Of a DNA stretch of 64,000 nt, positions 32,947-50,111 are shown piece after piece; the stretch's first letter is position 1, and the number at the start of each line of letters is the position of its first letter. The notes beneath the pieces are model-generated. The model ran no database searches and had not been told where the DNA came from. It was given only the letters and a program-made list of their open reading frames with translations. The stretch comes from Candidatus Cloacimonadota bacterium (GTDB taxonomy: Bacteria > Cloacimonadota > Cloacimonadia > JGIOTU-2): assembly GCA_023129415.1 (NCBI GenBank), contig JAGMCF010000151.1, forward strand, positions 1,616 to 65,615, in the 5' to 3' direction. Made by a program: the position numbers and the translations under genes.

Positions 32947-33621
32947 CTACTCCACATTGTGAATATATTTTTCAATTTTTTCCTTATCAAGTTCACCCAA
33001 ATTTAATGCTTTTTCAATCACAAAATCCCCAATTCGCATTCTTCGCAACTCAACTAAATGTCCAACTGTTCCAAGTTTTTCAGCAATATCCTCTGCTAAT
33101 GTGCGTATATAAGTTCCTTTAGAAACTACTGTTGAAAACTTTAAAAATGGCTTCTTATAATCTAACAATCTCAACTCTTTTATCACAACAGTTCTTGGCT
33201 TTCGTTCAACAATTTCACCTTTTCTGGCAAGTTTATAAAGCCTAATACCATCCTTTTTGACTGCTGAATACATTGGTGGAATTTGCTCAATATTGCCAAT
33301 GAAATTTTTAAAAACTGCTTCTATTTGAGGAATTGACAATTCAGCAATAGGTTTTTCTTCAATAACTTTGCCTGTTAAGTCTGCTGTATCGGTCTTTTCG
33401 CCAAATTTAATCTTAGCAAAATATTCTTTATATAAATCTGAGAAATTTGAAATATATTTAGTTGCTTCTCTTCCGACAAAAACCAAAAGTACTCCAGTAG
33501 CAAATGGATCAAGCGTGCCTGCATGACCAACTTTCTTTACCCCGGTAAGATAACGGATTCTCTTAACAACTCCAAAAGAGGTTATTCCAGTCGGTTTATC
33601 AATATTAAGCAAGCCATACAT
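32947..33621 (-). CDS. truB: tRNA pseudouridine(55) synthase
   Basis: MYGLLNIDKPTGITSFGVVKRIR...GHAGTLDPFATGVLLV. The track start at 33648 lies inside the 33641-33657 hairpin. The ATG at 33621 gives the canonical N-terminus. Confidence 0.9.
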   Translation of the reverse strand: MYGLLNIDKPTGITSFGVVKRIRYLTGVKKVGHAGTLDPFATGVLLVFVGREATKYISNFSDLYKEYFAKIKFGEKTDTADLTGKVIEEKPIAELSIPQIEAVFKNFIGNIEQIPPMYSAVKKDGIRLYKLARKGEIVERKPRTVVIKELRLLDYKKPFLKFSTVVSKGTYIRTLAEDIAEKLGTVGHLVELRRMRIGDFVIEKALNLGELDKEKIEKYIHNVE

Positions 33622-33640
33622 ATAAAAAATCCTAAATCCT

Positions 33641-33657
33641 CCCGACATTTGTCGGGA
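33641..33657. mobile_element. 17-nt hairpin module flanked by a perfect 9-bp direct repeat
   Basis: cccgacatttgtcggga between ctaaatcct (33632-33640) and ctaaatcct (33658-33666). Confidence 0.6.
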
Positions 33658-33776
33658 CTAAATCCTAAATAAATTCAAAATCCAAATTTCAAATTAACAC
33701 GCATGCCAAAAGCATAATTTGCATTTGCCATTTTTCCTTTATTTATCGTTTACTTTCTGCTTCGTGTTTCTCATTG

Positions 33777-33960
33777 ATAATTAGTGTCTGTTCGTAAAGT
33801 CATTGTTTGTAGAACGACCTTTCCGTCTGGGCGCCGAGACCGACCAAGGTCGTTAATGTAAATAGGCTTTTCATGCCAAAGGCAGATCCCTCGGAAAATG
33901 TGCCTTAAGAAAACGAGCTAGGAACCTCGTTCTACATTTACGGACAGACTCTAATTAATT
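33777..33960 (-). mobile_element. MITE-like element, copy A (TIR-bounded, non-coding)
   Basis: Reverse complement of copy B apart from a few substitutions and a 25-nt insertion at 33871-33895. Termini are ttagtgtctgttcgtaaag and catttacggacagactctaattaa. The right TIR encodes the last 7 codons and stop of nrnA. Confidence 0.7.
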
Positions 33961-34918
33961 CCACAAGTTTTTCCTTTAATTCCTGTAATTCCATTTCTAC
34001 CTCAAAACCTGCAGCATGCCTATGTCCCCCACCATCATAATTTTTTGCAATTTTTTGAACATTTAGATTTTTCGATCTGAGGGAGCAACGATAATGATTT
34101 TTGTTTAGTTCACGAAAATAGATAATTACTTCATGTTCATCTGTAGGTTTTACTTCTTTTGAAAATCCTGATGTCAGTTCCATATCTACATTACAATCCT
34201 TAAGCATCTTCTGAGAAGTTAAATAACAAACAACTTTACTATCAAAATATTCTTCTATAGATGATAAAGTTTCACCTAACAATCTTAATTCAGATAATGA
34301 CCTGTTTTCAAAAAGATTAAGATAACATAAATTATTATTAGCTCCTAATTCAATCAACTTACTAGCTATTGAAAAGGTTACTGGTTTAACATTACTATTT
34401 GCAAAATTATTAGTATCATAAATCAAACCAGTATATAAAAAATTAGCAAATTTTTGTTTCCAGATTGAGGAAAAATTATTAATCTCATCTTTTAAAAGTA
34501 AATAAATTATCTCACAAGTTGAAGAAGAATAAATATCAATATATGATATTGAATTAGTAAGCTCCTCTGGTTCCTTATGATGGTCAATACAAATCAAATT
34601 CTTATAATTATCAAATATTTTTTGGATTTTTTGCCCAACTCTCTTTTTTTCATTAAAGTCGAGCATAATAATTATATAATCTGCACTATTAATAACCTTA
34701 GTTTGAACTTTATCAGATAGACCAAGAAAATGATACTTGCTCAATGGTTTATCCTGATTAATTATTTTAATATTTTTACCTAATTGTTTTAGATATAAGA
34801 ATAAAGCAAACTGTGCTCCTATTCCATCACCATCTGGATTTTCATGTGTTGTAAGAATAAAATTCTTATTATTATCAATTATCTTCCGGAATTCAAATTT
34901 AAATTCATCAATCTTCAT
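33938..34918 (-). CDS. nrnA: DHH-family phosphoesterase (NrnA-like oligoribonuclease/pAp phosphatase)
   Basis: ILTTHENPDGDGIGA, DHH at IDHHKEP, and GGGHRHAAGF (DHHA1). Confidence 0.8.
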   Translation of the reverse strand: MKIDEFKFEFRKIIDNNKNFILTTHENPDGDGIGAQFALFLYLKQLGKNIKIINQDKPLSKYHFLGLSDKVQTKVINSADYIIIMLDFNEKKRVGQKIQKIFDNYKNLICIDHHKEPEELTNSISYIDIYSSSTCEIIYLLLKDEINNFSSIWKQKFANFLYTGLIYDTNNFANSNVKPVTFSIASKLIELGANNNLCYLNLFENRSLSELRLLGETLSSIEEYFDSKVVCYLTSQKMLKDCNVDMELTSGFSKEVKPTDEHEVIIYFRELNKNHYRCSLRSKNLNVQKIAKNYDGGGHRHAAGFEVEMELQELKEKLVELIRVCP

Positions 34919-35258
34919 ATTTTTTGCGTTCTTTTTCTATAAGCAATTCTATTGAATGAGCATCTTTAGGAATATTATCATAAACAAAATTTAATTCTGG
35001 AGTATATCTTAAGTTAAGAGTTTTTGCCAGTCTCATTCTAATATATTTCTTAGCTCTATTTAAACCCTTGTGAGCATATTTACTTTCTTTATCACCAAAA
35101 ATTGAGAAATATATCGTTGCATAATGCATATCAGGAGAAACATCAACCTTTTCAATTGTAATATTTTTTACTCTTTTATCTCGTAAATCAAATCGGACTA
35201 TTTTCGACAGATTTTGTTTAATAAGTACATTTAATCTCTCTTGATGAAATTTTGACAT
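34908..35258 (-). CDS. rbfA: Ribosome-binding factor A
   Basis: 116 aa with the RbfA pattern (ITIEKVDVSPDMHYATIYFS...LRYTPELNFVYD). Operon context after infB. Confidence 0.9.
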   Translation of the reverse strand: MSKFHQERLNVLIKQNLSKIVRFDLRDKRVKNITIEKVDVSPDMHYATIYFSIFGDKESKYAHKGLNRAKKYIRMRLAKTLNLRYTPELNFVYDNIPKDAHSIELLIEKERKKYED

Positions 35259-35539
35259 TAATAATAATCCTCAATTTTAGTTATCTCAATATTAATATAG
35301 TTATTTTCAATAAAATTGATAATTGCTGATAATTGCTTCTCAATATAAGGCATTTCATTGGCAATTATAGAAATACCAAGTGTAGCATTTTTCCACTTAT
35401 CATTATTATTTATTTCAGAAATTGAAACATTATATTTATTATGTACTTTTTGTATGATACTTTTTATAATACTTCTTTTGCTTTTTAAAGATCTTGATAA
35501 TGGCAAATAAAGATTTATTATTATGCTTTTTACTGGCAT
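35258..35539 (-). CDS. DUF503 (YlxP-like) protein
   Basis: 93 aa, LYLPLSRSLKSKRSIIKSI. Conserved position between infB and rbfA. Confidence 0.8.
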   Translation of the reverse strand: MPVKSIIINLYLPLSRSLKSKRSIIKSIIQKVHNKYNVSISEINNNDKWKNATLGISIIANEMPYIEKQLSAIINFIENNYINIEITKIEDYY

Positions 35540-35548
35540 AAATTTATA

Positions 35549-37879
35549 TTATTCTATTTTTTTTCTTTCTTCGGTTTTTATGTACGCTTCAATAATAGCC
35601 CCCACCTTTATATCATTAAAATTTTCAATAGCAATTCCACATTCCTGGTCTTCATTTACCTCTTTCACTTCATTCTGAAATTTTCTAAGGGAAGCAATCT
35701 TTCCCTCATAAATTTTTATATCTTCATAGAAAAGTCTGACAAGAGCGTTATTAATAATTTTCCCTTCAGTAACAAAGCAACCAGCAACAGTACCAACTTT
35801 AGAAATTTTAAATATCTGCTTCACTTCTGCAGTTCCCATAATTTCTTCATGAATAACTGGTGCAAGTAAACCTTCAAGTGATTTTTTTACATCGTCAATT
35901 GCTTCAAAAATAACATCATATAATCTTATCTCAATCTTACTAAATTCAGCAGCTTTCCTCGCTTCAGCATTTGGACGAACATGGAAGCCAATAATAATTG
36001 CATTTGAGGCTGCAGCCAGATTTGCATCAGCTTCAACGATTCCACCAACTGCCTTATGAATTACATTAACTTCAATTTCTTCTGTTCGTATCTTTTGAAG
36101 AGCATCACAAATCGCTTCAACTGAACCATCAGTATCTGCTTTTACTATTACATTCAGTGCATTTGCCTTGATCTGTTGAATTCTATCAAATAAATTATCT
36201 AAAGTTATATCTTTACCACTTGCAATCTGTCGCTGTCTAATAATAAATTGTCTTTTGGAAGTTATTTCTCTTGCACTTTTTTCATCTTTTACAACATTAA
36301 AAGTATCACCTGCTTGCGGAACTCCATTTAAACCTAAAATCTGCACAACTCCGGATGGATAGCAGGATTTTACTGTTTGCATTCGTTCATCAATCATTAA
36401 ACGAACTTTCCCAAATTGAGCACCACAAATTGCAATATCACCAGTTTCTAAAACACTATTTTGTACTAATATTGTGGCTATTGATCCCTTTCCTTTGTCC
36501 AACTTTGCTTCAATAACAACTCCTTCTGCATTACCAGTATATCTCGCTGTCAATTCTTCAACTTCAGCAACTAAAAGAATTGTTTCTAATAAATTATCAA
36601 TACCTTCTCCAGTTTTCGCAGAGCATTCAACATACTCTACAGAACCACCCCAACCGTGCAGTCTGATATTTTGTTGACCAAGTTGAACTTTTACCTTCTC
36701 AGTATCAGCATTAGGTAGATCAATTTTATTAATGGCAATAATTATAGGTATATCTGCAGCTTTTGCATGGTCAATCGCTTCAATTGTTTGGGGCATAACG
36801 CCATCATCTGCAGCAATTACAATCACAGCAATATCTGTAATCTCTGCTCCTCTGGCTCTCATAGCAGTAAAAGCTTCATGACCGGGTGTATCAACAAATG
36901 AAATCTTTTGATTGTTAAATTCTACTTGATATGCTCCAATATGCTGAGTTATTCCACCAGCTTCACCAGCGATAATGTTACTTTTTCTTATATAATCAAG
37001 TATGGATGTCTTGCCATGATCAATATGACCCATAATTGCAACTACAGGGGGTCTTGTTTTAACCTCAACCTTATCAATCTCTTTTTGCTCTACAGATAAA
37101 ATATCACTTCCATATTGTTCTGCAAAGTCCACTTCAAAATTGAATTCATCACAAATCATTATCAACGACTCTTTATCCAACCTCTGATTGATTGTAATCA
37201 TCTTTCCAAGCTCCATGAATTTAGCAACTATCTCAATTGAATTTTTACCCATAATCTTTGCTAATTCCGAAGCTGAAGTAAACTCGCTTATAACTATTTT
37301 TTGTGGTTTTTCTTCTTTTACAACCTTATCTTTTTTATATTTTTTTACTTTTGATTCCTTTGAAAGAGTAGCTTTTATATTTCCCTTTATTTGTTGTTGA
37401 TCAAAAAATTTCTTTTCTCGTTCTTCACGAAGTCTTGCCTTTTTGTCTTTAAATCTAACTTTTTCTTTTTTCTTTTCTGTGCCAGGTTTGGTTGGAGAAG
37501 GTTTTTTTTCTAATGTTGGTTTTGCTTTTTCCTCTTCTGCTTTTATTTTTTCCAAAGGTTGTTTTTTAAACTCTCCCTTTTTTGATGACTCTTGTAAAAC
37601 TTTCTCTTCAGGACTGACGGTTTTTTCACTAACAGGTTTTCTAGATCTTTGATACTTTTTAGAACGCAATTGTTCCTGATAGGTTTTTCTCTGTTTTTGC
37701 CTTACTTTAGCTGCTTCCATCTGCTCAGAAAACATTTTATTAATTTTTTCAACAGACTCTTTATCAATATAGCTCATATGACTTTTTACAACTACAGTCA
37801 TATCCTTTAAAATCGAGATTAATGCTTGCGGAGAAATTTTTAATTCCCGAGCAAGTTCATAAACCCTTTTTTGATTCAT
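35549..37879 (-). CDS. infB: Translation initiation factor IF-2
   Basis: N-terminal [11 protein letters not shown], Lys-rich linker, GTPase motifs [21 protein letters not shown]. Confidence 0.95.
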
Positions 37880-37888
37880 ATTTTGCCT

Positions 37889-38200
37889 CTAATCATTTAA
37901 AATCTTCTTAATACCTTCTATAAAATGTATGTTGTTAATAGCTACTAATGTTAATTTTCGTCTGCCAAAAATTTTACCTAAATCTTCATCAGAAAAAATA
38001 AAGGAAATTTGAAAACCTTTTAGCTTACATATTTCAGCCTTCTTTCTTATAAAACTGTTATCTTTCTTTCCAGAAAATATTAACCCGTTCTTATGTCTGA
38101 AAATCCATTTTTCTACCGCCTTTCTGCCTAATTCAACAGCTTTAGCTTTCCTCGCTAATCTTAACATATTAGCTATTTTCTCTTTCTTTTCTTCAACCAT
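37889..38200 (-). CDS. L7Ae-family RNA-binding protein (YlxQ-like)
   Basis: 103 aa. Conserved position between ylxR and infB. LRLARKAKAVELG pattern. Confidence 0.7.
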   Translation of the reverse strand: MVEEKKEKIANMLRLARKAKAVELGRKAVEKWIFRHKNGLIFSGKKDNSFIRKKAEICKLKGFQISFIFSDEDLGKIFGRRKLTLVAINNIHFIEGIKKILND

Positions 38201-38394
38201 TTTTCAAGTTTATTTATGCAATTTGAAGTTACACAGCAATAATATCCTCTACCTTGCATTTTTTGTTTATAATCAAAAACTATAATATCATTTTTAATTA
38301 CGAATCTTAATAAATTTGGTTTTGCATCTTTATTTTTACATATAACACAAGTTCGGCTGGGTATATGTCCTGCATTACTTGCTTTGTTTACCAT
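38173..38394 (-). CDS. YlxR (DUF448) RNA-binding protein
   Basis: IPSRTCVICKNKDAKPNLLRFV, GRGYYCC. Confidence 0.85.
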   Translation of the reverse strand: MVNKASNAGHIPSRTCVICKNKDAKPNLLRFVIKNDIIVFDYKQKMQGRGYYCCVTSNCINKLEKWLKKRKRK

Positions 38395-38464
38395 CTCGCC
38401 CGGTTAGAAATTTTATCTGAATTATTATTTTCTTATATTTGCATTTAGCCAATTTCTAATAGGG

Positions 38465-39700
38465 TTAGAAATATTTAGCAGATTCTTTAATTTTTTCTGC
38501 AGTTTTCACACCGATACCTTCAATCTGGCAAAGTTCACGAATGGAAGCAAGATGTATATCCTGAACAGAAGTATAACCTGCATTATGTAAGATTCTTCCA
38601 ATATTTTCCGTAACACCTTCAAGTTCAAAAATAGGACTTGTAATTCTGCGTTCATTAGCTGATATTTCTTCATATTCCTCTTCTAATAAGACATCCAATT
38701 TATAATTCGTAAGTTTTGCTGCTAATTTAATATTTTTACCACCTTTACCAATTGCAATATTCTTATTCTTTGGGTCAGCAATAATTTGTGCAAATTTTCC
38801 TTTATCCGCCAAATATACTCTTTTTACTAACTCATTACCAACACTATTTTTAATAAATTGTTCATGATTCTCACTCCAAACAATTATATCAACCTGTTCA
38901 CCGTGAAGTTCCTTTTTTATCTCTTCAATTCTCATACCTTTTGGTCCAACACAACTTCCAAATGCATCAATATTTTTATTTGTACTATAAACAGCAACTT
39001 TGGTTCGATATCCCGGTTCTCTTACAATCTTCTTAATAACAACATATCCATCTAATATTTCTGGGATCTCACTTTCAAATAATTTTATTATAAATTCCGG
39101 TCTCCTTCTTGAAAGTATTACCCTTACTCTTCCTTTTTGATTTCTAATATTAGCAATATATGCTTTTATATAATCGCCTGACTTATAAAATTCAGTCTCA
39201 ATTTGTTCTTCTGTTGGGAGTAACCCTTCAGTAAAACCAATATTAACAATATAACCATTATATTCCACCTTTTTTACAACACCAGATACAATTTGTCCTT
39301 TTTGCTTTTCATAATCAACCTTGATTTTTTCAGTTTCAGACTCCCTTATTCTATTAATTATAGCCTGTCTTGCTGATTGAATTGTTTTCCTGCCAAATTC
39401 AGAGATAGGAATTTCAACTGAAATATAATCATCGATCTGAGCTGTTGGAATAATCTTCTGAGCATCTTTTATGCTGATTTCATCAAAATTCTTCTTGACT
39501 TCTTCAACTACTTTTGTTGATAATTTGGCAACCACTTTATTTTCATCAAAATTAATTTCAACAGATAATTCACAATTTGGATTTAACTTCTTTGATAATG
39601 TTGCTTCTAAACTATCTTTAATTATATCTGCAATAACTTCCCTTTTTATCTGTTTAAGCCTTGCAAATTCATCTATAATTGCAATTAAATTAAATCCCAT
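38465..39700 (-). CDS. nusA: Transcription termination/antitermination factor NusA
   Basis: N-terminal domain, S1 domain (GQIVSGVVKKVEYNGYIVNIG), KH domains (GSCVGPKGMRIEEI, IAIGKGGKNIKLA). The track start at 39766 overlaps rimP by 59 nt. The ATG at 39700 has an AGGTG 5 nt upstream and is preferred. Confidence 0.95.
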   Translation of the reverse strand: MGFNLIAIIDEFARLKQIKREVIADIIKDSLEATLSKKLNPNCELSVEINFDENKVVAKLSTKVVEEVKKNFDEISIKDAQKIIPTAQIDDYISVEIPISEFGRKTIQSARQAIINRIRESETEKIKVDYEKQKGQIVSGVVKKVEYNGYIVNIGFTEGLLPTEEQIETEFYKSGDYIKAYIANIRNQKGRVRVILSRRRPEFIIKLFESEIPEILDGYVVIKKIVREPGYRTKVAVYSTNKNIDAFGSCVGPKGMRIEEIKKELHGEQVDIIVWSENHEQFIKNSVGNELVKRVYLADKGKFAQIIADPKNKNIAIGKGGKNIKLAAKLTNYKLDVLLEEEYEEISANERRITSPIFELEGVTENIGRILHNAGYTSVQDIHLASIRELCQIEGIGVKTAEKIKESAKYF

Positions 39701-39707
39701 CTCGCAC

Positions 39708-40196
39708 CTAATTCTTTCTATTTTTTTTAGAGAATTCAGATGACCAGTTAAATACTGCCTTGGCATTCTTTATCTGTTCATAAAATATGGTAATATTTTT
39801 TTCCTCATCTAATTTAATAGAGATAGAATCTTCATTGGCAGATTTCAGAACGCCTTTTACTATTTGAATGTTCTGTTCATCGTTAAGAAATTTAATCTTA
39901 ACTAATTCATTTAGAGCATCAATAAAATGTTGAGGAGTTTTCAAATTTCTATTAAGACCTGGAGATGAAACTTCCAAAACATATCTTGATTCAAATATGT
40001 CTCTCATATCCAATTCATCTCCAATCTCCTGGCTAATTTTCTGGCAGTCATCCAATGTAACACCATTTTTCCTGGTAATATAAACCACCAGAGATTGATT
40101 ATTATGTCTTCCTTTTAACTGCCAATCATAGAGCTGAATATTCATTCTTTGACATACTTTTTTAATAATATCTTCCAAAATTTCATTATTTTTCAT
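39708..40196 (-). CDS. rimP: Ribosome maturation factor RimP
   Basis: 162 aa, YVLEVSSPGLNRNLK motif, position upstream of nusA. Confidence 0.9.
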   Translation of the reverse strand: MKNNEILEDIIKKVCQRMNIQLYDWQLKGRHNNQSLVVYITRKNGVTLDDCQKISQEIGDELDMRDIFESRYVLEVSSPGLNRNLKTPQHFIDALNELVKIKFLNDEQNIQIVKGVLKSANEDSISIKLDEEKNITIFYEQIKNAKAVFNWSSEFSKKNRKN

Positions 40197-40213
40197 ACTG
40201 TATTTTTCTCATA

Positions 40214-40240
40214 CAAAAAATGCTCCGAACAATCGGAGCA
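40214..40240 (-). terminator. Intrinsic-terminator-like hairpin in the rimP leader (candidate attenuator)
   Basis: Minus strand reads gctccgattgttcggagc followed by attttttg. It ends about 18 nt upstream of the rimP ATG. A TTGACA lies at 40286-40291 (minus) upstream of it. Confidence 0.6.
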
Positions 40241-40316
40241 AAAACTCGCTCTGCTTTTAGTTAAATTTGCTGATTAATAATTTTTTGTCAAATATTATAG
40301 GATTTTTCAGGAAATA

Positions 40317-40473
40317 TAATTAGTGTCTGTCCGTAAATGTAGAACGAGGTTCCTAGCTCGTTTTCTTAAGGCACATTTAAAGCCTATTTACATTAACGAC
40401 CTTGGTCGGTCTCGGCGCCCAGACGGAAAGGTCGTTCTACAAACAATGATTTTACGGACAGACACTAATTAAT
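40317..40473 (+). mobile_element. MITE-like element, copy B (157 bp, perfect 21-bp TIRs)
   Basis: taattagtgtctgtccgtaaa (40317-40337) and tttacggacagacactaatta (40453-40473). Internal hairpins gaacgaggttcctagctcgtt and aacgaccttggtcggtctcggcgcccagacggaaaggtcgtt. No ORF. Confidence 0.75.
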
Positions 40474-40548: not shown

Positions 40549-42747
40549 TTATTTAACAAAAATTTTCCCAGTACCATTGGAAATTACTCTTCCAATTTTT
40601 GAAAATCCTTGAATTCCCTTTTTCTGAAATTTGTCCATTAATTCTTTACATTCATCTTCTGGAATAGAAACTAACAAACCACCAGAAGTTTGTGCATCGG
40701 ATAAAAGAACTTTCTGAACATAAGAAATTGATGAACTCCATTCCACAATTGGCTCAACAAATTTCAAATTGGATAAAGTCCCTCCGGGAATGATATTCCC
40801 AGTTGCAAATTCAGCTGCACCATTAAGGAGTTTTACATTATCTGCAAATATTTCAACATCCACATCACTTGCTTTTGTCATTTCAGATAAATGCCCTAAT
40901 AGACCAAAACCCGTAACATCTGTGCAAGCATGGACTGTAAAATCATTTAATATTTGAGATGTGTAATTATTCAAAGTTTCCATTGTCTCAACTAATTCTG
41001 ATTTTTGATTTTTGGAAAGTAATCCTCTCTTCATAGCAGTAGATAAAATGCCAGTTCCAATTGGTTTTGTAAGAAGAATCGCATCATTGGGAACCATACC
41101 AATATTTTTCCAAATTTTTTCTGGATGAACAAGACCAACAACAACCATGCCATATTTCGGTTCTGTATCTTCAATAGAATGTCCGCCAATGATAGTTATA
41201 CCAGCTTCTCTCGCTTTTTTCTGGGCACCTTGTAAAATTTCTTCCAATACACTTATTGGCAGACGATTGGTTGGGAATCCAACAATATTTAATCCAAAGA
41301 GTGGTTTTGCACCCATTGCATAAATGTCACTTAAAGCATTTGCAGTAGCTATCATTCCAAAATCAAAAGGGTTATCTACAATAGGGGTAAAGAAATCTAC
41401 AGTAACAACTATTGCAGTATTTTCATCAATTTTGTAAACAGCAGCATCATCAGCAGTATTTGTGCTTACCAGAATATTCTTATCATCTGGAATGGGCAGT
41501 TTCTGTAATATTGTTTCCAATATTTGGGGTTCAATCTTGCAAGCACATCCCATTCCATGAGTAAAATGAGTCAATTTGATTTCTTCTTTCATATCAATTA
41601 TAATATGCTCTTTCTTTGCTTGAAATTTTTGCACAGTTTTGATAATAATTTCCGCCGCTTGCTCAATTTCTTCTTCAGTTGTAAATTTACCTGTTGAAAA
41701 ACGAATAGTTCCCATTGCATAATCAATGGGCACATTCATTGCTTGCAAAACAGCAGAAACATCTATCCTGTCAGAATGACACGCAGCACCAGCAGAAGCT
41801 GCAACTCCACTCATTTCAGAAAGAATAGTGTTCGCTTCTACTTTATAAAATCCTAAACTTAAAGTATTAGGCAAACGCTTTTCTGGATGCCCATTCAAAT
41901 GAAAATTAAGATTTGATTCATTGAGTTTTTGATGAAGTAGGTCCCTCATCTTTTTCATATATTTACTATTTTTCTTAAGGTCCCTCCCTGCAATTTCACA
42001 GGCTTTTCCTAGACCGACAATACCCAGAACATTCTCAGTTCCAGCCCGTAGATTCTGCTCGTGATCTGCACCATGAATGAACTTTTGCAAAGTTATTCCT
42101 CTACGAATATAAAGAGCTCCAACCCCTTTCGGAGCATATATTTTATGACCTGCGATTGTCAGAAGATCAATCCCTAACTCATCCACATACACGGGAATTT
42201 TTCCGATGGATTGTGCTGTATCTGTATGAACAAAAATATCGTTTTGTTTTGAAATCTTTGCAATTTCTGAAATAGGCTGAATTGTTCCAACCTCATTATT
42301 GGCATGCATAATTGTAATCAAAATAGTTTGAGGAGTGATAGCTTTTTCAACATCTTTTGGGTTAACCAAACCATATTCATCTACAGGTAGATATGAAATA
42401 TTGAATCCCTGTGATTCTAAATATTCACAAACTTCCATAACAGAAGGATGCTCAATTGAAGAGGTTATAATATGATTTCCCCTATCTTTATGAGATAATG
42501 CAATCCCTTTAATAGCAAAATTATTTGATTCTGAGCCACCACTGGTAAAAATAATCTCATCAGGATAAGCATGTATCAAATCAGCAATTTGTTTGCGTGC
42601 ATTTTCAATAGCCTTTTTAGTTTGAATTCCATACCAGTGCATGCTGGAAGGGTTACCAAAATGATTATCTAAAAAAGGTCTCATAGCTTGTGCTACTTCA
42701 GGTGCAACGGGAGTTGTGGCATTATAATCTAAATAAATCGGTTTCAT
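40549..42747 (-). CDS. selD: Fusion protein: NifS-like cysteine desulfurase/selenocysteine lyase (N) + selenophosphate synthetase SelD (C)
   Basis: N-terminal half is a class V aminotransferase (LDYNATTP, HANNEVGTIQP, AGHKIYAPKGVGALY, SAGAACHS). From about residue 390 it is SelD (LTHFTHGMGCACKIEPQILETIL, GGHSIEDTEPKYG). The catalytic position is Cys, not Sec. No stop or frameshift between the halves. Confidence 0.85.
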   Translation of the reverse strand: MKPIYLDYNATTPVAPEVAQAMRPFLDNHFGNPSSMHWYGIQTKKAIENARKQIADLIHAYPDEIIFTSGGSESNNFAIKGIALSHKDRGNHIITSSIEHPSVMEVCEYLESQGFNISYLPVDEYGLVNPKDVEKAITPQTILITIMHANNEVGTIQPISEIAKISKQNDIFVHTDTAQSIGKIPVYVDELGIDLLTIAGHKIYAPKGVGALYIRRGITLQKFIHGADHEQNLRAGTENVLGIVGLGKACEIAGRDLKKNSKYMKKMRDLLHQKLNESNLNFHLNGHPEKRLPNTLSLGFYKVEANTILSEMSGVAASAGAACHSDRIDVSAVLQAMNVPIDYAMGTIRFSTGKFTTEEEIEQAAEIIIKTVQKFQAKKEHIIIDMKEEIKLTHFTHGMGCACKIEPQILETILQKLPIPDDKNILVSTNTADDAAVYKIDENTAIVVTVDFFTPIVDNPFDFGMIATANALSDIYAMGAKPLFGLNIVGFPTNRLPISVLEEILQGAQKKAREAGITIIGGHSIEDTEPKYGMVVVGLVHPEKIWKNIGMVPNDAILLTKPIGTGILSTAMKRGLLSKNQKSELVETMETLNNYTSQILNDFTVHACTDVTGFGLLGHLSEMTKASDVDVEIFADNVKLLNGAAEFATGNIIPGGTLSNLKFVEPIVEWSSSISYVQKVLLSDAQTSGGLLVSIPEDECKELMDKFQKKGIQGFSKIGRVISNGTGKIFVK

Positions 42748-49984: not shown

Positions 49985-50076
49985 CAGAGAGGGCAGGAAT
50001 CGAACCTGCCACAGACGGTTTCATCCGCCCACTACTGGTTTTGAAGACCAGCCGAAACACCAGTTCCATCCTCTCT
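49985..50076 (-). tRNA. selC: tRNA-Sec (anticodon UCA)
   Basis: Minus strand: AGAGAGGATGGAACTGGTGTTTCGGCTGGTCTTCAAAACCAGTAGTGGGCGGATGAAACCGTCTGTGGCAGGTTCGATTCCTGCCCTCTCTG. Anticodon loop CUUCAAA; 6-bp anticodon stem; D stem (U)GGAAC/GUUUC(G) with 4-nt loop; long variable arm GGCGG-AUGAAA-CCGUC; T arm GCAGG-UUCGAUU-CCUGC. No encoded CCA. Ends uncertain by 1-2 nt. Confidence 0.85.
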
Positions 50077-50111
50077 TTTTCTTCTCTATAAACTAATTAT
50101 TGAATTATTAC

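Follow-up and report, generated by a model that had tools for sequence, protein, structure and literature searches.

The rimP–nusA–infB–rbfA–nrnA operon of a Candidatus Cloacimonadota bacterium lies between two inverted copies, A and B, of a short repeat on contig JAGMCF010000151.1, of which a stretch of 64 000 nucleotides (hereafter the window) was analysed. We consider it very likely that the copies are two independent insertions of a miniature inverted-repeat transposable element (MITE) with an inverted repeat of about 15 nt and the target TAATTA, mobilized in trans by a transposase of the ISNCY family. That they sit symmetrically around the operon is best taken as a coincidence of two transposon insertions. 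The preliminary description of this DNA had called the repeat MITE-like and bounded by terminal inverted repeats, and this is borne out: it occurs in many copies, duplicates its target site, has a recovered empty site and shares its ends with autonomous elements.

In the mechanism that we propose, the MITE body, with GWGTCTGTCCGTAAA at both ends, would integrate into the palindromic hexamer TAATTA and duplicate it. The non-coding element would be moved by the DDE transposase of insertion sequences (ISs) of 1.65–1.72 kb that have the same ends; we infer mobilization in trans because the window contains no transposase of this type. One copy would have inserted into the spacer immediately 5′ of the rimP leader. 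The other would have entered a TAATTA internal to nrnA, replacing the C-terminal tail of the protein and pushing truB 174 bp further away.

Anatomy of the two copies and the insertion in nrnA

Copy A occupies positions 33778–33957 on the minus strand (180 nt including both TAATTA duplications; body 33784–33951) and copy B, in the opposite orientation, positions 40317–40471 on the plus strand (155 nt including both duplications; body 40323–40465). They match as inverted repeats over 33778–33875 and 40374–40471 (98 nt, 96% identity) and over 33896–33957 and 40317–40378 (62 nt, 98%). Gapped alignment gives three substitutions in 155 aligned positions, with perfectly identical stretches of 54 and 71 nt, and one insertion or deletion of 25 nt: a segment present in copy A (about 33871–33895, the boundary being ambiguous by a few nucleotides) and absent from copy B. 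This agrees with the earlier statement that copy A is the reverse complement of copy B bar a few substitutions and a 25 nt insertion.

The terminal inverted repeat of copy B, TAATTAGTGTCTGTCCGTAAA, is perfect over 21 nt, as had been described; in copy A there is one mismatch per arm. The partition of these 21 nt is to be revised. The true inverted repeat starts at GWGTCTG, with perfect arms of 15 nt in copy B (40323–40337 and 40451–40465), and the outer six nucleotides of each 21 nt repeat are the target-site duplication TAATTA. In copy A the duplications lie at 33778–33783 on the truB-proximal side, an assignment based on the empty site and on direct non-palindromic duplications in a related IS (see below), and at 33952–33957 on the nrnA-proximal side, within the nrnA reading frame. 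When up to three mismatches are allowed, the four ends are the sole matches to the 21-mer in the window, and 100 shuffled sequences yield none.

Neither copy contains an open reading frame (ORF) of 50 aa or more, and at 155 and 180 nt they are non-coding and non-autonomous. Their GC content is 42–44%, against an average of 32% for the window. Both are predicted to form a long terminal stem with three internal hairpins inside it, at −62.7 kcal/mol for copy B (z = −8.6) and −61.8 kcal/mol for copy A (z = −5.4). Both lack a terminator-like motif, that is a stem with a T-run behind it. There is no Rfam match to either copy at the gathering threshold, and the search at E ≤ 1 returned one chance miRNA hit only.

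The preliminary description placed the copies upstream of the rimP leader and overlapping the 3′ end of nrnA, and both positions are confirmed. The gene nrnA (33938–34918, minus strand) encodes a DHH/DHHA1 protein of 326 aa, where relatives have 335–339 aa. Its stop codon (33938–33940) and last six codons (LIRVCP) lie inside copy A and come from the duplication and inverted repeat of the element. The insertion site is a TAATTA within the reading frame, 12 codons ahead of the original stop. Deleting the element together with one TAATTA restores the nrnA tail ...KLVELIINEKHEAESKR (also given as ...ELIINEKHEAESKR), followed by the stop, and a reconstructed protein of 332 aa; with the element in place the C-terminus reads ...KLVELIRVCP (326 aa). 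The predicted NrnA C-terminus is chimeric here, with six codons and a stop of transposon origin.

The gene truB (32947–33648, minus strand) is the next gene downstream of nrnA and copy A and has the same orientation. Three relatives (L125–L127), with NrnA proteins 82, 79 and 65% identical to that encoded here, have the order rbfA–nrnA–truB with nrnA–truB gaps of 30, 133 and 107 bp; the gap in the window is 290 bp, against 30–133 bp in these relatives without the element. No trace of the end sequence was found at the nrnA–truB junction of the three. Alignment of the window with L127 reveals a clean insertion of copy A between conserved flanking sequence, and the nrnA tail and the nrnA–truB spacer resume on the far side of the copy. 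In short, relatives carry the operon with its gene order kept and the element absent at this junction, which is the outcome of the synteny comparison that the preliminary description had proposed.

A small palindrome, TCCCGACATTTGTCGGGA, is present at the start of truB (33641–33658) and is missing from the equivalent position in L127. It resembles hairpin modules in the interiors of the Cloacimonadota MITEs L005, L098 and L041.

Target site, distribution and autonomous elements

An empty site was recovered in a Saprospiraceae genome, SGMAG-24. The filled site of one copy (L076:136–297) reads ...GTCTGTAGGAT TAATTA [GAGTCTG...CAGACTC] TAATTA ACCCAAAATTCC, and four paralogues (L014, L070, L054 and L091) carry the empty form ...GTCTGTAGGA(T/G) TAATTA ACCCAAAATTCC. 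The flanks around the insertion are thus ...GGAT | ACCC..., and those of the empty paralogues ...GGA(T/G) TAATTA ACCC.... Since the empty sites have one TAATTA and the filled site two, the target is TAATTA and it is duplicated on insertion. TAATTA is palindromic, so this comparison alone cannot fix the length of the duplication. A related IS, with a transposase 57% identical to that of the autonomous element L223 described below, is flanked by direct non-palindromic hexamers (TAAATA on both sides in L251, TAAGTA on both sides in L252), and these set the duplication at 6 bp. The empty site, the 6 bp non-palindromic duplications and the shared-hexamer junctions described below rule out a TA duplication of the IS630 type, or no duplication at all, both of which had been considered because no direct repeat lies outside TAATTA.

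The repeat that served as the empty-site reference is itself a second, unrelated short family of SGMAG-24 (L014, L054, L070, L084, L091 and L076), with ends CTACAGACC...GGTCTGTAGG and about 93% identity between copies.

The ends often meet. Among the 444 ends listed, from 233 sources, there are about 33 back-to-back junctions in which two ends share a single TAATTA, so that about 15% of the ends listed lie in such junctions. Each junction is a 36 bp palindrome, and tandem arrays form. Examples are L058, L083, L085, L042, the right end of L237, L238, L240, L245 and L248, and arrays are found in a Bacteroidetes CG23 metagenome-assembled genome (MAG). Rhizobial ISs resembling ISRsp17 likewise have tandem copies that share a hexamer, TAGCTA (L250:2640–2679). 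This arrangement suggests a preference of the transposase for the duplicated hexamer next to a resident end of its own element. Two other readings of the palindromic junctions, as a recombinase-type site (arm–spacer–arm, dif or lox-like) and as REPIN/RAYT elements, were dropped once elements encoding a DDE transposase were found to have the same ends.

The family was surveyed by scanning species-representative genomes for the exact end sequence with two degenerate positions and by scanning metagenomes for the same sequence; counts from both scans are lower bounds. In MAGs of several phyla, TAATTA followed by GWGTCTGTCCGTAAA marks the boundaries of over 150 elements that are short and non-coding. 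The 21-mer was found at at least 112 loci in at least 26 assemblies in the genome scan and at at least 120 loci in the metagenome scan. Among the matches listed the hosts are several Cloacimonadota MAGs and one single-cell genome, Saprospiraceae, Bacteroidales and other Bacteroidota, together with Marinimicrobia, Calditrichota (Caldithrix), two Armatimonadota MAGs and one Altarchaeum MAG. Decayed copies occur in a cultured isolate, Anaerophaga thermohalophila. Copy number can be high, with at least 64 ends in SGMAG-24 and at least eight loci in Cloacimonadota NIOZ-UU1. A blastn search of plasmids and a search of viral contigs with the end sequence gave nothing relevant.

Among the matches listed, the genome set holds at least 66 pairs of ends, spanning 110–633 bp, and the metagenome set at least 91, all but eight of which are shorter than 420 bp (some of the eight long ones join different elements); most pairs in both sets span 120–230 bp. 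Single ends, in genomes and metagenomes alike, are often found where a contig stops, as is typical of a repeat that breaks assemblies. Solo ends at genome loci with room for a long element were considered as possible parents, but each turned out to be a MITE that has one decayed end and adjoins ordinary genes. A taxon-weighted profile of the ends is near-invariant over positions 1–21, weaker at position 23 and fading inward beyond about position 23; outward, conservation breaks off abruptly at the first T of TAATTA, with none beyond it. The interiors are mostly unrelated across lineages. An exception is the Cloacimonadota element L016, which shares interior modules with the Marinimicrobia element L059 and with L038 from an unclassified MAG. 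L189 and L231, both from metagenomes, also have the interior sequence of the window copies.

Metagenomic contigs also yielded autonomous elements bounded by the ends of this family and by TAATTA: L223 (199–1900, 1702 bp), L237 (695–2340, 1646 bp) and L257–L260 (four copies at two distinct sites, about 1715 bp). All have ends of the form TAATTA-GTGTCTGTCCG and each has one ORF of 452–456 aa. The L223 transposase passes the cut-off of the NCBIfam model NF033593 (ISNCY family, transpos_ISNCY_1) with 344.8 bits against 325; the IS5_1 and IS1182 models score well below their cut-offs, and the Pfam domains DDE_Tnp_1 and DDE_Tnp_1_6 are sub-threshold. The transposase of L237 is 47% identical to that of L223 and those of L257–L260 are 74% identical. 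L223 has 1266 homologues at E ≤ 1e-20, mostly on contigs of about 1.7 kb. Their named hosts are Latescibacterota and Saccharibacteria, with no Cloacimonadota record among them, and the nearest named relatives are rhizobial proteins annotated as 'ISNCY-like element ISRsp17 family' (35% identity). A near-invariant 15 nt end and TAATTA, kept across transposases that are only 47% identical and across MITEs of several phyla and accompanied by end-to-end junctions, suggest that insertion is targeted to the element's own ends.

Similarity of the ends and similarity of the transposases are decoupled in this group. The L223 and L237 proteins are 47% identical, yet their elements share GWGTCTGTCCGTAAA and TAATTA; the P0228 group has a transposase 57% identical to that of L223, but its end is GTGTCCATCCGTAGC and its targets, TAAATA and TAAGTA, are looser.

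Another candidate parent was rejected. A two-ORF transposase containing DUF6399 (PF19936) adjoins a MITE end in L055, but it belongs to a different IS with ends of its own (GGCTATNCG.CTAA.GTTGGACA, 1.68 kb, 8 bp duplications), one copy of which has inserted into a MITE (L055:2389–4064). The Pfam family, annotated as of 'unknown function', corresponds to the second ORF of this 1.68 kb two-ORF IS (loci L113–L122; 788 homologues). Its 23 nt ends have the form GGCTATNCGNCTAANGTTGGACA, its duplications are TGTTTTTG in L117 and GGGATGAA in L119, and near-identical copies (99.9–100%) are present at three loci of one assembly.

Alternative explanations for the paired copies

Several observations weigh against two independent insertions by a mobile element. 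Within the 64 kb window, the part of this genome that was covered, only two copies are present. A tblastn search of the window with the L223 protein found no transposase homologue, which weakens the case for current mobility in this organism. The upstream neighbour of rimP differs in the closest relatives, and an empty site for copy B was not recovered from them. Finally, the interiors of the two copies give conflicting signals as to their exact history: both share a private GC-rich module, yet the two forms that the 25 nt segment distinguishes recur in other metagenomes, where L189 has the long form and L231 the short one.

The two copies might instead have been recruited as punctuation of the operon, their hairpins serving as terminators, insulators or RNase-processing or stabilizing sites that delimit expression of rimP to nrnA. 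MITEs such as the Correia elements affect transcription and RNA processing, and this precedent is known from the literature. Both copies are predicted to fold very stably as RNA and both occupy transcribed or promoter-proximal positions. We nevertheless regard such a role as unlikely. Neither copy has a stem followed by a T-run, the two are oppositely oriented relative to transcription and what copy A interrupts is a coding tail, not a spacer. The relatives have the same operon, the same leader and a compact nrnA–truB junction without the element, and the interiors of the family elsewhere are mostly unrelated. The suggestion in the preliminary description that the element acts as an operon boundary, as a terminator or insulator, is not upheld on these grounds. 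Nor are the two sequences conserved in relatives, as regulatory RNAs would be: they were looked for at the copy A site and at the rimP leader and are absent there. A hairpin of about −62 kcal/mol may have a nonspecific effect on read-through RNA.

It is less likely still that the 6.3 kb block between the copies is inverted by homologous recombination and exists in both orientations in the population. The copies are inverted and 98% identical, and perfect stretches of 54 and 71 nt suffice for low-frequency RecA-dependent recombination. The earlier proposal of an inversion substrate stands to this extent, as possible in principle, but the assemblies, GC skew and gene order give no sign of it. 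A second, independent assembly of the same population is collinear, with both copies in the same arrangement. The GC skew of the 32–40 kb block is −0.22, like its flanks, which argues against long residence in the other orientation; the plus-strand skew is negative across the window, from −0.05 to −0.22. Of the ORFs of at least 180 aa in the whole window, 36 of 37 lie on the minus strand, the strand of the operon. In relatives, too, the genes have this order and this orientation relative to truB. An inversion would uncouple truB from the operon and set highly expressed essential genes counter to the direction in which most genes here point.

That the MITEs and the enclosed genes form a composite transposon, with the outer ends at 33784 and 40465 used together so that the operon came in, or could depart, as one unit, is extremely improbable: any two copies would provide correctly oriented outer ends, and the TAATTA that flanks both of them is uninformative because every insertion has it, but the operon is in its ancestral context (relatives without the element show synteny for rbfA–nrnA–truB and for the genes downstream), the nrnA tail and the nrnA–truB spacer continue across copy A and the composition of the block, at 30% GC, is that of its flanks.

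Taken together, there is a slim chance that the pair are more than passengers, through rare RecA inversion, use of the outermost ends by an ISNCY transposase or recruitment of the hairpins for RNA processing or termination. If inversion or outer-end use did occur, the essential rimP–nusA–infB–rbfA–nrnA block would be an occasionally rearranged or mobilizable cassette; if the hairpins had been recruited, truB would be uncoupled from the operon. Under the preferred explanation of two independent MITE insertions, the copies would be neutral or mildly deleterious passengers, and any effect would stem from the strong RNA hairpin that they add to read-through transcripts.

Genomic context, known systems and significance

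The genes enclosed by the copies all lie on the minus strand. Besides nrnA they are, over 34908–40196, rimP (39708–40196), nusA (between rimP and ylxR), ylxR (38173–38394), an L7Ae-like ORF (37889–38200), infB (35549–37879), a DUF503 gene (35258–35539) and rbfA (34908–35258). The pair was said to bracket the whole operon, and it does enclose rimP to nrnA; truB, however, follows copy A, so the conserved gene string is not enclosed as a whole.

From copy B to the rimP ATG there are 121 nt, and the rimP leader begins to be conserved about 8 nt downstream of the copy. This leader (40197–40308, minus strand; about 115 nt) is kept, without the MITE, in the 65%-identity relative (L127:2520–2635). It contains a terminator-like hairpin at 40240–40221 (TGCTCCGATTGTTCGGAGCA) followed by a T-run (TTTTTTGTAT), 25 nt before the ATG, and looks like a conserved attenuator. 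No Rfam match for the leader was found. In Bacillus, NusA autoregulates its own operon via leader terminators.

Just upstream of copy B is a gene for a protein of 732 aa (40549–42747, minus strand) in which an Aminotran_5 domain is fused to AIRS/AIRS_C. The AIRS/AIRS_C part resembles selenophosphate synthetase. A selenocysteine tRNA is found at 49985–50077 (minus strand, 59.8 bits), and together with the fusion it points to selenium use in this organism.

The closest known counterparts are the ISNCY ISs of the ISRsp17 type, found on Sinorhizobium and Rhizobium plasmids. They likewise have a single ORF of about 455 aa in 1.65–1.7 kb (the rhizobial IS is 1676 bp) and a palindromic hexamer followed by GTGNCNGTCCNTAAA, with TAGCTA-GTGCCCGTCCATAAACG in rhizobia against TAATTA-GTGTCTGTCCGTAAA here, and in both groups tandem copies share the hexamer. 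They differ in that the window has a non-coding derivative only and that the hexamer is TAATTA rather than TAGCTA. Their hosts are rhizobia, whereas the elements described here occur in MAGs of Cloacimonadota, Bacteroidota, Marinimicrobia and Calditrichota. The ISDol1 group of ISNCY in ISfinder, which has duplications of 6–7 bp, may be the formal home of the lineage.

The Correia elements of Neisseria and the RUP elements of pneumococcus are also MITEs of 100–200 bp that have terminal inverted repeats, are non-coding and multi-copy and form long hairpins; they too insert near or into gene ends, where they can supply stop codons. Unlike the present element, they are related to IS630 and duplicate TA, whereas here the duplication is the 6 bp TAATTA and the parent is an ISNCY element (IS5/IS1182-related). 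REPIN and REP–BIME sequences, which depend on RAYT (Y1) transposases, are similarly short intergenic doublets of inverted repeats that form hairpins and are spread widely through a genome. In contrast to them, the present elements have a target-site duplication and ends in common with ISs that encode a DDE transposase, and the 15 nt arm is itself no REP-type palindrome.

A literature search on the end sequence, the TAATTA duplication, ISDol1 and ISRsp17 returned nothing relevant, text matches to the end sequence being unrelated primers only, and we know of no description of this lineage, of its TAATTA target or of its MITEs.

The elements are ordinary insertions from a known IS family, ISNCY, and to annotate the pair in the window as a regulatory RNA, operon boundary or inversion switch would be unwarranted. 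The lineage breaks many MAG assemblies, since its ends lie at contig ends, and could be masked or could serve as a marker. With the end sequences and the duplication length now assigned to a poorly characterized ISNCY group, a MITE/IS lineage is defined that has a strict palindromic 6 bp target, TAATTA, 15 nt ends kept in several phyla and a pronounced bias towards insertion next to its own ends.

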